Shown piece by piece: positions 11,697-49,408 of a stretch of 64,000 nt of DNA; position 1 is the stretch's first letter; each line of letters opens with the position of its first letter. Position numbers and translations under genes: made by a program. This DNA comes from an uncultured Acidobacteriota bacterium. Lineage in GTDB: Bacteria; Acidobacteriota; Thermoanaerobaculia; UBA5066; DATFVB01. The notes under the pieces are model-generated. The model searched no databases, was not told the DNA's origin, and was given only the letters and a program-made list of their open reading frames with translations. Location: the NCBI GenBank assembly GCA_963813155.1, contig CAWEYG010000001.1, forward strand, positions 480,001-544,000, given 5' to 3'.

Positions 11697-11812
11697 AGTG
11701 CGAGCATCATATCCGGGTGGATGCGGCCAAGATCGTTTCCCTTCTTTGGCTTGCCCAGGATTCTATGCCTCTCCCGCGTGGGCAGTGAGCAAGCCCTCGT
11801 TGGGCCAAGTCC

Positions 11813-12132
11813 TCATCGCCCCGATTCCCCGATCGCTTTCCCAAGCTCTCGCGCAGTCGCGCCGAGGGTGAACAGCGACCGAACCAGCAGATCCATCGAG
11901 ACCGACCGGTCAGCCGCTTCCATCTTCGCCACGCGCGACTGGCTCGAATGTAGCCGCTTCGCAAACGCGGCCTGCGAGAGCCGATGATGGATTCGGGTGT
12001 CACGAAGTAAGCGGCTTAGGGTCAGCTTGAGCTCGATCAGGGCCTCCTCTGCCTGACTCAGCCCGAGGAACTCCGCTGCCGTGCCGACCTTCCAGCCGGC
12101 CGCGGCCAGCCCAGTCGCCTCGCAGTTCTCAT
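11813..12132 (-). CDS. XRE-family HTH antitoxin-like regulator (one frameshift near the 5' end)
   Basis: Manual translation MRTARRL/LAAAGWKVGTAAEFLGLSQAEEALIELKL...LSQAAFAKRLHSSQSRVAKMEAADRSVSMDLLVRSL; missed by the ORF track. Confidence 0.75.
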
Positions 12133-12142
12133 TCGCTCAGTA

Positions 12143-12160
12143 TATGTCACTTCTGACATA
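12143..12160. promoter_or_regulatory. Palindromic operator upstream of the HTH gene
   Basis: Perfect inverted repeat TATGTCA-CTTC-TGACATA about 10 bp upstream of the start codon. Confidence 0.65.
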
Positions 12161-12168
12161 ACACCCAT

Positions 12169-12213
12169 CCCTCTCCACCTGGAGAGGGGGGACCGCCGCA
12201 GCGGTGGGTGAGG
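12169..12213 (+). repeat. CCCTCTCC-type REP-like hairpin
   Basis: CCCTCTCCACCTGGAGAGGG..CCGCCGCAGCGGTGGGTGAGG; related copies at 15692 and 49364. Confidence 0.75.
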
Positions 12214-12231
12214 TGGAAACTGCGACCCAGG

Positions 12232-13276
12232 GCGATTCTTTGATTTCACAAACGAAGTGCAACACCTTCTGATGGGGGTGCTGCGATGGGGCGCCAATAC
12301 GGGCAGCTTGGGATCCAGGAACGGTGTGAGATTGCCCGGCGTCGCTGCGCCGGGCAATCGATCCGGCAAATCGCGGCAGGTCTGGATCGCGCGCCATCGA
12401 GCGTTGCTCGGGAGCTGAAGCGCAACAGCACGACGTCGGGCGGGTATCAGCCCGTTTACGCCGGTCAACAGGCCAAGGCACGGCGCTGGACCGGCAGCAA
12501 ACTGTTGCGTCGGCCCGACCTCCAGGCTCTGGTCTTGGACCGCCTCAGTCAGGGATGGTCGCCGCAGGAGGTCGCCGGCAGGCTCGCGCGCGAAGAAGGC
12601 CGGCCGGTTGTCAGTCATGAAACCATTTATCGCTTCATCGCCGCTCAGATCGCTCGCACCAAGGATTACTCCTGGCGGCTCTACCTCCCCCGCGGCAAGA
12701 GCAAGCGCGGCCGACGCTCCCCAAAACACGGCAACTCGACCGTGCACATCCAAAACCGTGTCCCCATTGCTCTGCGACCCCCAGAAGCCAGTGACCGAAC
12801 CAACCCTGGCCATTGGGAGGCCGATCTCATGCTCTTTGCCACCTATGGGCAGGCCGTCTTGGCCCTTCACGAACGTACTTCTTGACTGACGGTTATCCTG
12901 CGTCAACAAAGCAAGGCCGCCGCACCTCTTGTCTCTACCATCGAAAATCTTCTGCGACCTCTTCCCCCGTCCCTGCGCCGCACCGTGACCTTCGACAACG
13001 GAACCGAGTTCGCTTTCCATCACCGCCTGGGGAAAACCCTCGGAGTCGAAACATTCTTTTGCGATCCACGGTCTCCTTGGCAGAAGGGCGGAGTCGAAAA
13101 TGCCATCGGCCGGCTTCGTCGCTTCCTCCCCCGAAAAACCGACCTGGCAGTCCTTCCCACGAGCCAAATCCTCCGCCTTGCCCAACTCTACAATCACACA
13201 CCTAGGAAATGCCTTGACTTCCAAACCCCGGCCGAGGTCTTCTCTCATCTGTTGCACTTCAAATGTGAATCCACCT
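12232..13276 (+). mobile_element. IS30 family insertion sequence, copy 1
   Basis: Matches 15771..16815 with only one difference seen; imperfect IRs TTTCACAAACGAAGTGCAACA / TGTTGCACTTCAAATGTGAAT; exact ends uncertain. Confidence 0.9.
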
Positions 13277-13296
13277 CCCCGCGTTCGCGGGAATGA
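12286..13296 (+). pseudogene. IS30 transposase interrupted by a nonsense codon (CGA>TGA at 12883-12885)
   Basis: Same protein as 15825..16835 but stops at HERTS*. Confidence 0.85.
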
Positions 13297-13297
13297 C
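13277..13297 (+). repeat. GGGAATGAC-type REP half abutting the IS right end
   Basis: CCCCGCGTTCGCGGGAATGAC hairpin; variant TCCCGCGTGCGCGGGAATGAC after copy 2. Confidence 0.65.
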
Positions 13298-13358
13298 GGG
13301 GCTGGGCGCGCCGGGGAGGGGTCGGCGTATCGTCGATTTGGTAGACTTTCTTGCGCAA

Positions 13359-15072
13359 ATGTCCTTTCCACGGGCGGCGATTCTCGTGCTCGGCCTCGCC
13401 CCGTTCTTCGGAGCGCGGCCTGCCGCGGCCGCGCCTTCCCGCGACCCGCGGGAATTCGCCGTCGATCGGCTGCCGGCGGACTTCTCCGGAACGTGGGAGA
13501 TCTTGTTCGACGACGGCCGCTGGCGTCCCGTGACGATCCCCGGAACCTGGCAGGAGAGCGGCTATCCGAACCACGGCTTCGCGTGGCTGCGCGTTCGGTT
13601 TCGGGTTTCGTCCGGCGCCGCTGAGCAGGCGCTCGCGCTGGCCTCGACGCAGATCCGCGACGCCGAGGAAGTTTTCCTCGACGGACGCCGGATCGGCGGC
13701 GCGGGCGGCTTTCCACCCGTCTACGCGAAGGCCACGCTGCTCGATCGCGTCTACCCGCTGCCGGTCACCCTCGGCGCCGGACCGCATGTCCTGTCTTTCC
13801 GAATCTACAACGCCGGGCCGCGCGGCGGCGGAATCACCGGAGTGCCGAGAATCGAGCGGCTCGAGGATGCGCTCGGGCGCCGGTCCGGCCGCGACTTGTT
13901 CCGGTTGCTCCTCGCCTCGTCGATCGGCGCGATCGGCCTCGTCGCTCTGATTTTCTATCTGCGCGACCGCCGCCAGCGCGAGCTCTTGTTCTTCTTTTTC
14001 TACGCCCTCTCGATCTCCGCCTACCAGCTCACCTGGCTCTCCGCGTGGAGCCAGGCGCGATCGCCGGTCTGCTGGCAGTTCCGGCTGAACATGTTTTTCA
14101 TCTTCGTCATTCTCGGGTTCTACATCGTCTTCAACCTCCGCGTGTTCGGCCGGGCCTTTCGGCGGCGGCACGTGGCGGCTCTCGCCGTGATCGCCACGCT
14201 GTCCGCGCTGACGCTCGCCTGGCCTCGCGTGGACGATCTCTACGTTTTTCTCGCGGTCGACGAGATCGTGTTCGTCCTCGTCGCGGTCGAAATGCTGACG
14301 AACCTCGTCCAGGACACCCGCCGCCGAATTCCGTACGCCGCGCCGGTTCTGGCCGGCACGGTCGTCTGCGTCTTCGGCGCGGGCTACGACATTCTGCAGG
14401 ACATGGGGCTCCTGGGAGATCCCGCCGGGACGTTCCGGCTGCTCGGCCCCGCGATCCTGGTCTTCACCCTGGTCTACCTGTGGGTCATGGCCGACCGATT
14501 CGCGTGGGCGAACCAGGCCGCGGTCGACCGACCCGCTGACCGGACTGCCGAATCGCAATCTCCTGTTCGAGCGGCTGTCGCAGGAGCTTTCCCGGTCCCG
14601 GCGGACGGGTCAGCCGTGCGCGCTCGCGATCCTCGATCTCGACAATTTCAAGGCTTTCAACGACCGCTTCGGCCACCTCGCGGGCGACCAGTTCCTGCGG
14701 GTCGTCGCCAACGCGATCCAACGGGCGACGAGGGACACCGATCTCGTCGCCCGCTACGGCGGCGAGGAGTTCGTGATCGTGCTGCCGGGGAGCGACCGCG
14801 AGATCGCAACGCGTTGCCTCGAGAGGATCCGCTTCGAAGTCGCGCAGACGCGCCTCGGGTCCGACTCCGAGACGCGCACCGCCTCGATCGGCGCTGTCAT
14901 CTACGATCCCGTTTCGCAGCCCTCGATCGGGATGTTGCCGCTGCTCCGAAACGCCGACGCGGCGCTGTATTCCGCCAAGGCCGAGGGCCGCAACCGCCTC
15001 GTGCTCGTCAAGGGCCCGCTGCGCGAAACCATCTCCGGTCCCACGCCGATCCCGAAGCTTCGCACGCGCTGA
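13359..15072 (+). CDS. Membrane sensor diguanylate cyclase (extracellular sugar-binding jelly-roll + multi-TM + GGDEF), frameshift near 14530
   Basis: WRPVTIPGTW..GY...GFAWLR..F (GH2-type sugar-binding motif); about 7 TM; shifted frame TDPLTGLPNR, DLDNFKAFNDRFGHLAGD, ARYGGEEF, ADAALYSAK.EGRNR. Confidence 0.85.
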
Positions 15073-15088
15073 CTTCTCCGAGCTCCCG

Positions 15089-15131
15089 AAAAAAGAAGCC
15101 GGGCTCCCGGTCATCCAACCGGGGGCCCGGC
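15089..15131 (-). terminator. Rho-independent terminator
   Basis: GCCGGGCCCCCGG/CCGGGAGCCCGGC stem followed by TTCTTTTTT on the minus strand, between convergent genes. Confidence 0.7.
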
Positions 15132-15141
15132 GGGAAGGAGA

Positions 15142-15400
15142 TTACCGCTTCGAAGAAGCGGGGGCCGCGGCCGGCTTCGCGGCCGGGCGTTTGGAAACGC
15201 TCCGGCGGTGACGGCGCGTCGACCTCTTCACCGCGGGCTTCGGGCTCGGCGGTGCTGGCGGTGTTTTGTCCGGACGTCGCGTTGGCAGACGGCGCCGGGG
15301 TCGCCTTGGCGGACGACGGCGAGGCCGCCGGGCTGGCGGCGAAGACCGCTGCCGACAGGGACAGGATCCCCGAGGCGGCGAGAGCTGCGAGTTTCTTCAT
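15142..15400 (-). CDS. Small secreted low-complexity Ala/Ser/Pro/basic protein (Asr-like); probable frameshift near 15235
   Basis: MKKLAALAASGILSLSAAVFA signal; shifted frame gives VKRSTRRHRRSVSKRPAAKPAAAPASSKR* ending just before the terminator. Confidence 0.55.
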
Positions 15401-15691
15401 GACCTTGTTACTCCCCTGTCTCCCGTTGGGTTGTCGAGGTGGGAGACTCCGTAAGACCTCGCCAACCCCTATTGGAACTCTCGTGCCACGCGTCGCCAGA
15501 AGCCAAGCTCAACGGCGCGCGGCACTTCGCAAAGGCGGGGTTTTTTGGAGCCGGCGAAATCTGAACGAATTCGTCTATCCCAGTTCGACGTCTTCGTGTT
15601 TTTCGATTTGGGAAGAATCTATTCCCGGATTTCGATCTTCCCCGACCTGCAAGCGGGGAGGGGCGGCGCACATGAAGCCTTCTTCCGATTT

Positions 15692-15734
15692 CCCTCTCCC
15701 GGCGGGAGAGGGTGCCGCGCAGCGGCGGGTGAGG
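15692..15734 (+). repeat. CCCTCTCC-type REP-like hairpin
   Basis: CCCTCTCCCGGCGGGAGAGGGTGCCGCGCAGCGGCGGGTGAGG. Confidence 0.75.
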
Positions 15735-15770
15735 GAAGGAGCGCCGGGGTGGGGTCAAAGCTCGACCCGA

Positions 15771-16815
15771 GCGATTCTTTGATTTCACAAACGAAGTGCA
15801 ACACCTTCTGATGGGGGTGCTGCGATGGGGCGCCAATACGGGCAGCTTGGGATCCAGGAACGGTGTGAGATTGCCCGGCGTCGCTGCGCCGGGCAATCGA
15901 TCCGGCAAATCGCGGCAGGTCTGGATCGCGCGCCATCGAGCGTTGCTCGGGAGCTGAAGCGCAACAGCACGACGTCGGGCGGGTATCAGCCCGTTTACGC
16001 CGGTCAACAGGCCAAGGCACGGCGCTGGACCGGCAGCAAACTGTTGCGTCGGCCCGACCTCCAGGCTCTGGTCTTGGACCGCCTCAGTCAGGGATGGTCG
16101 CCGCAGGAGGTCGCCGGCAGGCTCGCGCGCGAAGAAGGCCGGCCGGTTGTCAGTCATGAAACCATTTATCGCTTCATCGCCGCTCAGATCGCTCGCACCA
16201 AGGATTACTCCTGGCGGCTCTACCTCCCCCGCGGCAAGAGCAAGCGCGGCCGACGCTCCCCAAAACACGGCAACTCGACCGTGCACATCCAAAACCGTGT
16301 CCCCATTGCTCTGCGACCCCCAGAAGCCAGTGACCGAACCAACCCTGGCCATTGGGAGGCCGATCTCATGCTCTTTGCCACCTATGGGCAGGCCGTCTTG
16401 GCCCTTCACGAACGTACTTCTCGACTGACGGTTATCCTGCGTCAACAAAGCAAGGCCGCCGCACCTCTTGTCTCTACCATCGAAAATCTTCTGCGACCTC
16501 TTCCCCCGTCCCTGCGCCGCACCGTGACCTTCGACAACGGAACCGAGTTCGCTTTCCATCACCGCCTGGGGAAAACCCTCGGAGTCGAAACATTCTTTTG
16601 CGATCCACGGTCTCCTTGGCAGAAGGGCGGAGTCGAAAATGCCATCGGCCGGCTTCGTCGCTTCCTCCCCCGAAAAACCGACCTGGCAGTCCTTCCCACG
16701 AGCCAAATCCTCCGCCTTGCCCAACTCTACAATCACACACCTAGGAAATGCCTTGACTTCCAAACCCCGGCCGAGGTCTTCTCTCATCTGTTGCACTTCA
16801 AATGTGAATCCACCT
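15771..16815 (+). mobile_element. IS30 family insertion sequence, copy 2
   Basis: Direct repeat of copy 1 at offset 3539 bp; intact transposase. Confidence 0.92.
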
Positions 16816-16835
16816 TCCCGCGTGCGCGGGAATGA
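15825..16835 (+). CDS. IS30 family transposase
   Basis: HTH SIRQIA..L.R.PSSVARELKRN; GHWEADL, TFDNGTEF, PWQKGGVEN, N.TPRKCLDFQTP (DDE). Confidence 0.95.
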   Translation: MGRQYGQLGIQERCEIARRRCAGQSIRQIAAGLDRAPSSVARELKRNSTTSGGYQPVYAGQQAKARRWTGSKLLRRPDLQALVLDRLSQGWSPQEVAGRLAREEGRPVVSHETIYRFIAAQIARTKDYSWRLYLPRGKSKRGRRSPKHGNSTVHIQNRVPIALRPPEASDRTNPGHWEADLMLFATYGQAVLALHERTSRLTVILRQQSKAAAPLVSTIENLLRPLPPSLRRTVTFDNGTEFAFHHRLGKTLGVETFFCDPRSPWQKGGVENAIGRLRRFLPRKTDLAVLPTSQILRLAQLYNHTPRKCLDFQTPAEVFSHLLHFKCESTFPRARE

Positions 16836-16866
16836 CTCGGGCGACGGAATCCAGCGGTCAGCCCGC

Positions 16867-49363: not shown

Positions 49364-49408
49364 CCCTCACCCTCGCTGCGCTCGCCCTCTCCCACAGGGG
49401 GAGAGGGG
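49364..49408 (-). repeat. CCCTCTCC-type REP-like hairpin (no IS next to it)
   Basis: Reverse complement CCCCTCTCCCCCTGTGGGAGAGGGCGAGCGCAGCGAGGGTGAGGG. Confidence 0.75.

Follow-up and report, generated by a model that had tools for sequence, protein, structure and literature searches.

The window examined here is a stretch of 64,000 nucleotides from an uncultured Acidobacteriota bacterium (assembly GCA_963813155.1, contig CAWEYG010000001.1, positions 480,001 to 544,000 of the forward strand). We focused on two insertion sequences (IS) between positions 12,230 and 16,836 of the window. Each is flanked by pieces of a repetitive extragenic palindromic (REP) unit, which we call REP-B. Both elements belong to the IS30 family. 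Comparison of their surroundings suggests that each transposed into a single REP-B unit, which would be its hot spot. The features of the two copies are as follows.

12230 to 12238, + strand: left piece of REP-B at copy 1 (GGGCGATTC); it closes with TTC, the left copy of the target duplication.
12239 to 13275, + strand: IS30-family element copy 1, 1037 bp; reading frame from 12286, broken by TGA at 12883 to 12885 (codon 200).
13276 to 13297, + strand: right piece of REP-B at copy 1 (TCCCCGCGTTCGCGGGAATGAC); it opens with TCC, the right copy of the duplication.
15769 to 15777, + strand: left piece of REP-B at copy 2 (GAGCGATTC); TTC at 15775 to 15777 is the left copy of the duplication.
15778 to 16814, + strand: IS30-family element copy 2, 1037 bp, intact; ends right after transposase codon 330.
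15825 to 16835, + strand: transposase open reading frame (ORF) of copy 2, 336 amino acids, with D180, D237 and E271; codons 331 to 336 and the TGA (16833 to 16835) lie in the REP-B piece, outside the IS.
16815 to 16836, + strand: right piece of REP-B at copy 2 (TTCCCGCGTGCGCGGGAATGAC); TTC at 16815 to 16817 is the right copy of the duplication.

The family was assigned using the product of copy 2. The NCBIfam profile NF033563, 'IS30 family transposase', matched residues 38 to 308 with 238.7 bits, against a cut-off of 80. The Pfam profile HTH_38 scored 48.4 bits, and Pfam rve scored 27.4 bits, under its cut-off of 32.6. Transposases of the IS30 family carry a DDE triad with about 33 residues from the second aspartate to the glutamate. 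Elements of this family also have one long ORF, inverted repeats of about 20–30 bp at the ends and a duplication of 2–3 bp at the target. The putative triad here, assigned by motif, is D180 (HWEADLM), D237 (TFDNGTEF) and E271 (GGVENAIG), with a D–E spacing of 33. A single ORF of 336 amino acids runs from position 48 to the end of the 1037-bp element. There is no stop codon for this frame within the IS. Codons 331 to 336 (FPRARE, SPRSRE and similar) are encoded by the repeat, and the stop is the TGA of the ATGAC tag that closes the REP-B unit. Six of the seven copies in the genome specify the 336-residue product. The length is exactly 336 amino acids in 98 of the 120 best database protein relatives. 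The frame runs on where the tag is CGAC, as at alphaproteobacterial loci, or where the insertion lies outside the repeat.

The terminal inverted repeats of the IS are imperfect, with 19 of 26 positions matching. With the ends set by comparison of all copies, copy 2 is bordered by TTC at 15775–15777 and again at 16815–16817. Copy 1 has TTC on the left (12236–12238) and TCC on the right (13276–13278), the middle base being different. The preliminary description of this DNA had seen no target duplication, and had placed each IS between two different REP hairpins. Neither statement survives: the three bases are present on both sides once the true ends are known, and the nine bases on the left (GRGCGATTC) and the 22 on the right make up one unit, found uninterrupted 13 times in this genome. 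That description was right about the right-hand motif, yCCCGCGTkCGCGGGAATGAC, which stands at 13276–13297 and 16815–16836. It was also right that the IS bodies differ at a single position. The copies are direct repeats, and in the aligned 1300-bp stretches the sole mismatch is T at 12883 versus C at 16422. This T converts codon 200 from CGA to TGA. The gene is thus broken in copy 1 and intact in copy 2. In the right piece of copy 2, a hairpin is retained with seven of eight stem pairs.

Contigs from public metagenomes agree with these boundaries. Briefly, contigs of 1039 bases, from soil metagenome runs of two studies, cover 15777 to 16815 with 4 and 28 differences. Such a contig comprises the IS and one constant base on each side. 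This is the break point expected of a graph assembler if the flanks vary between copies.

We then considered all copies in the genome. The assembly consists of 23 contigs totalling 3.81 Mb, with 66% G+C, and is 90.8% complete. Seven copies of the IS, with 99.3–100% identity, are found on six contigs. Every copy is preceded by GRGCGATYC and followed by TYCCCGC(G/T)T(T/G)CGCGGGRATGAC. The same bond is occupied in the same orientation in 7 of 7 cases. The immediate flanks are not random, as all seven copies lie in REP-B at the same position; beyond the repeat pieces, the surrounding sequences are unrelated. In five of the seven copies both sides carry the same 3-bp duplication.

REP-B is a 28-bp palindromic repeat, GRGCGATYCCCGC-N4-GCGGGRATGAC, that can be written GRGCGA-TYC-CCGC-loop-GCGGGRA-TGAC. 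When the IS splits a unit, 9 bp remain on the left and 22 bp on the right, with the three bases TYC duplicated. An uninterrupted unit, such as GRGCGATYCCCGCTTTCGCGGGRATGAC, corresponds to both pieces joined with one TYC removed, and units begin GRGCGATYCCCGC. Folded as DNA, the unit ATTCCCGC-TTTC-GCGGGAAT has an 8-bp stem, a 4-nt loop and a predicted energy of -8.8 kcal/mol. The insertion point follows bases 2–4 (TYC) of the stem's 5' arm. A pattern scan identified 21 hairpins of the form CCCGC-N2-6-GCGGG-NN-TGAC in the genome: 7 adjoin an IS, 12 follow GRGCGAYY and 2 are unrelated. A profile search with nhmmer added one further uninterrupted unit, plus two with a 21-base insert in the loop. 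REP-B thus totals 20 units, 7 occupied and 13 uninterrupted, and the family makes up about 0.015% of the genome. Hence, the presence of all seven IS copies within this repeat is far beyond chance. The two units with a loop insert (C2:879030-879067 and C7:13522-13563) carry the same 21 bases, which form a small hairpin. Their sites look like copies of one longer duplicated stretch.

Related elements in other genomes were collected by scanning one genome per species. We used the best 80 of at least 581 matching stretches, which have 60–73% protein identity. Both ends could be placed at 78 of the 80 loci; L028 is cut by a contig end and L077 has no visible ends. The host records name Chloroflexota or Dehalococcoidia, Nitrospirales or Nitrospira, Alphaproteobacteria, Candidatus Binatia and Stagnimonas. 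The hosts span Chloroflexota, Nitrospirota, Alpha- and Gammaproteobacteria and Binatia. Identical 3-bp duplications flank the IS at 70 of the 78 loci, and eight disagree. At repeat sites the duplicated bases are TTC (41), TCC (10), TAC (8), TGC (3) and CCC (1). Outside a clear repeat they are GGT, TTG, CGG, ATG, ACC and, twice, GGG. The duplicated bases also track the repeat subtype of the host, TAC occurring with ..GGTATGAC and TGC with ..GGGCATGAC. A hairpin of at least six pairs follows the right end at 62 of 78 loci, and (T/C)GAC is in register at 70 of 78. Uninterrupted targets were counted in five host genomes, giving 83, 46, 21, 5 and 5; controls gave 0. An unpublished genome of the same genus as our own, G002, has an IS 81–82% identical in DNA and 19 REP-B units. 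It contains one complete copy with GAGCGATTC on the left, and 4 of 4 right ends seen abut TTCCCGC../TCCCCGC..ATGAC pieces with differing loops.

The complete chromosome of a Chloroflexota bacterium, G041, was treated separately. Here every copy was taken, and the census is free of ranking bias. There are 26 matches, 22 of them with both ends. Identical duplications border 21 of the 22, and 21 of 22 lie in the repeat, with flanks patterned as in the present genome; one lies elsewhere (duplication GAG). In three other loci with Chloroflexota hosts (L050, L102 and L105) the right flank shows the occupied hairpin followed by tandem short units ending GGGAATGACGG or AGTAATGACGG. The 3' half of the repeat appears to have multiplied on its own in several Chloroflexota hosts.

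The comparison across hosts also bears on what the transposase reads. It could respond to the shape of the repeat only, as an extruded hairpin, a cruciform or single-stranded DNA at a fork, and not to its sequence. Stem changes are compensatory across hosts while the insertion point stays constant, as this idea would have it: one pair is T-A in 40, C-G in 11, A-T in 7 and G-C in 2 targets, and another is C-G in 45 and G-C in 14. Conversely, the orientation is fixed in 7 of 7 copies here and in every repeat-associated relative, despite the palindromic stem. Beyond the stem, targets in the relatives hardly vary, reading (C/A)TGGA to the left and TGAC(G) to the right. Among 62 targets, the left T is present in 62, the two following G in 58 and 62, and the right GAC in 62. 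In the G041 chromosome, 20 of 21 repeat insertions are in the CCCGC subtype, compared with 37 of 83 empty units (p = 1.4e-5). The ratio is 20 to 1 in favour of a subtype that is outnumbered by CCGGC-type units of identical shape. Hence, sequence matters and not hairpin shape alone. IS30 itself is described, in the available text of one paper, as choosing nearly palindromic hot-spot sequences (PMC9333248). We regard recognition of shape alone as unlikely.

A second alternative is that the hairpin and the nine left bases are part of the element itself, for instance its own terminator, and that no repeat is targeted. The hairpin does stand directly after the right inverted repeat in every copy, and the transposase frame ends inside it. 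An identical right piece is found in three of the seven copies, and protein length is the same in 98 of 120 relatives. We compared sequence variation in the seven copies. Columns vary at 7 of 31 positions in the repeat pieces and at 7 of 1037 in the IS body (Fisher p = 2.5e-8). The pieces are thus 30 times more variable than the element they adjoin. The left and right pieces, minus three bases, also occur as an uninterrupted unit, 13 times here and 5 to 83 times in the other hosts. The three bases at both ends co-vary as a duplication does (70 of 78 loci). Relatives inserted outside repeats lack the hairpin: the sites of L061, L083 and L087 have no hairpin or YGAC tag and carry the duplications TTG, ACC and GGG. 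The outer pieces are not mutual inverted repeats, and the contigs of two studies break at 15777 and 16815. Ownership of the hairpin by the IS is very improbable. On this sequence comparison, the flanking hairpin pieces are the target and not the element.

REP-B units could instead be by-products of the IS, either excision footprints or miniature derivatives moved by its transposase. Such an origin would suit the small size of the family, 13 empty against 7 occupied units. It would also suit our failure to find a Y1 (RAYT-type) transposase in this 90.8% complete genome, and the statement, in the accessible text of the describing paper, that CGTC-tagged REPs have no dedicated transposase (PMC3733652). 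Furthermore, GATTC (TGGATTC in relatives) is common to the left half of the target and the tip of the right inverted repeat. The distribution of the repeat speaks against this origin. Searches for the core pattern of REP-B gave 15, 15, 7 and 8 hits in the relatives G001, G003, G004 and G006, and 0 for a reversed-pattern control. No match to the transposase was found at E <= 1e-10 in these four or in G005, which was not scanned for the repeat. Of these, G004 is a single contig and 98% complete; G001 (78%) and G006 (51%) are less so, and absence is weak in those two. Among 41 genomes, only the present one (G000) and G002 gave DNA matches of more than 60 bases to the IS body. The G041 chromosome has 83 empty units versus 22 IS copies with both ends. 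In addition, the REP-B unit does not contain a pair of IS-like terminal repeats, and an excision footprint is not expected to yield a perfect 8-bp palindrome at many loci. We therefore give this origin very little weight.

Further to the left of both window copies is a second repeat, REP-A, consisting of CCCTCTCC..GGAGAGGG..GCAGCGG.GGGTGAGG. The relevant units are as follows.

12169 to 12213, + strand: REP-A unit upstream of copy 1.
15692 to 15734, + strand: REP-A unit upstream of copy 2.
49364 to 49408, - strand: solitary REP-A unit, with neither IS nor REP-B.

The preliminary description had recorded these units accurately, both as homologous but diverged flanks of the two copies and as an occurrence at 49364 without an IS, which is in inverted orientation. 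It proposed that independent insertions were guided by REP sequence or structure, possibly joining two REP families. Guidance by a REP holds, in that 7 of 7 copies here, 21 of 22 in the G041 chromosome and most of the 78 loci share one site and one orientation. The left REP, however, is not the target. In the two-family account, the IS would be guided by, and inserted between, REP-A on the left and the CCCGCG hairpin on the right, and might have joined them. REP-A does end 16 and 34 bases left of the split unit at the two window copies. These are the only two of the seven with REP-A on the left; three have an inverted REP-B (GTCAT..CCCGCG hairpin), and C8 and C4 have neither immediately to the left. 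The nine bases that adjoin the IS are REP-B. Composites of REP-A and REP-B without an IS exist at three places (C2:44703, C3:294952 and C1:732107). A joining role for the IS is thus hardly credible. REP-A is abundant, with 77 pattern hits in the genome, often as inverted pairs. We conclude that it is a separate family and a bystander of insertion. REP-A lies several times 13–14 bases upstream of REP-B as an A-B composite. A joint in a contig of the public run X6, connecting 12213 with 13278, was considered as an empty allele and rejected; only 24 letters lie on one side and 21 foreign letters stand between. We read it as a REP-A/REP-B composite of another organism.

An artefact of assembly, or plain segmental duplication, might be suspected from the near identity and 2.5-kb spacing of the two copies, but can practically be discounted: on either side their flanks diverge at the very first base past the conserved repeat pieces, one copy has a nonsense change, five further copies lie on other contigs with unrelated flanks, and contigs from an independent public run contain the same IS.

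Several observations weigh against insertion of the IS into REP-B as a hot spot, and must be set beside those above. The REP-B family is small in this genome (13 empty versus 7 occupied units). The variable base of the duplication differs in two of the seven copies, window copy 1 and C8, which have TTC on the left and TCC on the right. An identical, imperfect 25-base right piece (TCCCCGCGTTCGCGGGAATGACGGG), whose stem has a C-A mismatch, is common to three copies: C1:492232 (window copy 1), C8:20208 and C5:215503. Six of 7 occupied units have G as the first loop base, next to CCCGC, compared with 2 of 13 empty ones (p = 0.004). These irregularities of duplication, right piece and loop base may stem from a preference for a subtype, from gene conversion between copies that extended past the IS into the adjoining homologous repeat piece, or from the piece occasionally moving with the IS. 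A search of five relatives with the 10-kb stretch around both window copies, and the syntenic place in G001, gave no orthologous empty site for either copy. Similarly, no contig of the public runs spans either IS as an empty site at its own locus. Nor was an end-to-end IS junction seen in the mapped public contigs, which cannot show rare forms such as a circle intermediate. The ranking of related loci slightly favours repeat-adjacent copies, as the last six residues of the query are repeat-encoded. The search peptide HFKCESTF includes the first repeat codon and brings the same slight bias. Finally, loci from the same or related genomes are not independent.

Set against these points, several things are established: which family the transposase belongs to, where the IS ends, the duplication, a constant site and orientation, a repeat that exists independently of the IS, and the persistence of the insertion habit among relatives from several phyla. 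We consider it probable, at roughly 85%, that each element is a 1037-bp IS of the IS30 family that transposed into one unit of REP-B, a repeat resembling the CGTC-tagged REPs, and that this repeat is its hot spot.

The interpretation we favour can be set out as a series of steps. The transposase would select REP-B as a hot spot and cut with a 3-base stagger at TYC, bases 2–4 of the 5' arm. The right end of the IS is always directed toward the loop. Duplication of TYC would rebuild the 5' arm, and a near-complete hairpin would then stand directly after the right inverted repeat. The transposase frame reads six codons into the repeat and ends at the TGA of the ATGAC tag. By analogy with IS30, movement may be copy-out-paste-in through a circle with joined ends. 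By the same analogy, the N-terminal helix-turn-helix part may pick the target on double-stranded DNA. What the transposase recognises is probably the palindrome plus its invariant flanks, with TGGAT or GCGAT to the left and TGAC to the right. If a palindrome is read together with asymmetric flanks, the single orientation of the insertions would be accounted for. There is also a likeness between the tip of the right inverted repeat, taken backwards (GGTGGATTCAC), and the target's left portion, which is TGGATTC in relatives and GCGATTC here. We also considered a promoter at the circle junction, judged from the end sequences only. The -35-like TTGCAC seemed too far from the left end, and we make no claim for it.

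Since the repeat supplies the end of the transposase gene, the element and its landing site might form one functional unit. The repeat would complete the gene, with six codons, the TGA and a 3' stem-loop. CGTC REPs, which are found in many phyla and for which no transposase of their own is known, would serve as a shared landing pad, letting one IS30 clade spread across at least five phyla. We put this forward tentatively, as a possibility that we think somewhat doubtful. If it is true, only insertions into CGTC-type REPs yield the standard 336-residue protein and a message ending in a hairpin. A bolder form, in which the transposase of this clade moves or multiplies the CGTC REPs, seems to us very far-fetched.

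A gene lies between the two IS copies, at 13359–15072. It encodes a 7TMR-DISM_7TM domain (frame 13293–14522) and a GGDEF domain (frame 14521–15069), and these are in different frames. Contigs from three public runs lack one base at 14525/14526. Hence, this diguanylate cyclase gene either is frameshifted by +1 in the window or contains an assembly error. The right piece of copy 1 ends, at 13293–13297, about 60 bases upstream of the likely ATG of the gene at 13359, and the IS reads toward it. Read-through from copy 1 into the 7TMR-DISM/GGDEF gene is possible. We rejected a composite transposon of IS, GGDEF gene and IS. Its outer duplications agree (TTC and TTC), but TTC is the commonest duplication. 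Such a transposon is also unneeded, as an A-B composite site of its own accounts for each copy.

The wider region differs between relatives. In G001, of the same genus, the conserved flanks end at 11715 and 16864. In the window, the intervening 5.1 kb holds the GGDEF gene, two small ORFs and both IS copies; G001 has about 2 kb of unrelated genes in its place. The insertion sites are thus not comparable in this genome. The variable spot at 11715–16864 may have been shaped by the IS copies. In addition, a 975-base contig of run X1 matches 11900–11956 and 13331–13540 on one strand, with 508 letters between the matches compared with 1374 in the window. As 508 letters are fewer than the 1037 bp of the IS, a related strain probably lacks copy 1; the sequence of this contig is not shown and the comparison is a hint only.

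These observations matter for several reasons. IS elements that target REPs serve as examples of mobile DNA finding safe sites between genes. The clade described here consists of ordinary IS30-family elements of the DDE cut-and-join kind, and it hits one bond, in one orientation, in Acidobacteriota-like bacteria, Chloroflexota, Nitrospirota and Proteobacteria. It offers a small natural model in which to study how palindromic targets, and their polarity, are read by a DDE transposase. A transposase family is now linked to CGTC-tagged REPs, for which the available text of the describing paper reported no associated transposase. There are also implications for annotation. The true ends of the IS lie inside a repeat, the last annotated residues of the transposase are host-derived and the adjoining repeat halves are not parts of the element.

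How does the target compare with described repeats? Neisseria dRS3 repeats have the form ATTCCC-N8-GGGAAT. CGTC-tagged REPs, in the available text of Di Nocera, De Gregorio and Rocco (2013, PMC3733652), have a CGTC tag, an 8-bp stem opening with A-T pairs and a CCA-like unpaired tail, with a 4-nt loop in family 1. The same text equates CGTC-1 with dRS3. Read on the other strand, the target in the relatives is (C)CGTC-ATTCCCGC-N4-GCGGGAAT-CCAG, which fits both CGTC-1 as that text describes it and the dRS3 form above. REP-B has the stem and loop of CGTC-1, namely 8 bp opening with A-T pairs and 4 nt. GTCA never varies in the tag. The C before it is found in 6 of 12 empty units and 4 of 7 occupied ones in this genome; among related targets the figure is 49 of 62 (G at +20). 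The CCA tail of CGTC-1 is not matched by REP-B, which has CGC(TC); the targets in relatives have CCA(G). We conclude that REP-B is CGTC-1-like but not a typical member.

The closest reference for the element is IS30 of E. coli, the prototype. IS30 moves by a copy-out-paste-in route via a circle or a dimer with joined ends, and it targets nearly palindromic hot spots or its own ends, according to the available text of the paper cited above (PMC9333248). Our element shares with IS30 a DDE transposase carrying helix-turn-helix domains at its N terminus, inverted repeats of about 26 bp at the ends and a duplication of very few bases. The marked preference of IS30 for nearly palindromic hot spots, given in the same text, has its counterpart here in a palindromic repeat. 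IS30 is described there as attacking with a 2-bp stagger, compared with a 3-bp duplication in our case. Unlike IS30, the hot spot is an interspersed repeat family of many phyla, the orientation is fixed and the transposase frame has no stop of its own.

Among REP-targeting elements, IS1397, ISKpn1 and ISPsy8 belong to the IS3 family, IS621, ISPpu9, ISPpu10, ISPa11 and ISRm19 to IS110, and ISRm22 to IS4. The available text of Tobes and Pareja (2006, PMC1525189) lists REP targeting for the IS3, IS110, IS4, IS256 and IS5 families. For IS1655, an IS30-family element of Neisseria meningitidis, the same text gives an association with REPs for no more than 2 of 13 copies in one case and 2 of 6 in another. 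The type 1 association of these authors, as that text gives it, has all copies at one position of the unit while the repeat is also found uninterrupted. This is what we see in the present genome, with 7 of 7 copies at the same position of a unit that also occurs intact. No IS30-family element linked to REP targeting was found in the literature searched; subscription journals and ISfinder fall outside that search, and unpublished status is not proven. Our element differs from the known REP-targeting IS in three respects. It has an IS30 transposase, its target is a CGTC-type REP in place of the GTAG-type of enterobacteria and pseudomonads, and the habit is kept across several phyla. The element probably joins the REP-targeting IS as an IS30-family member aimed at CGTC-type hairpins.

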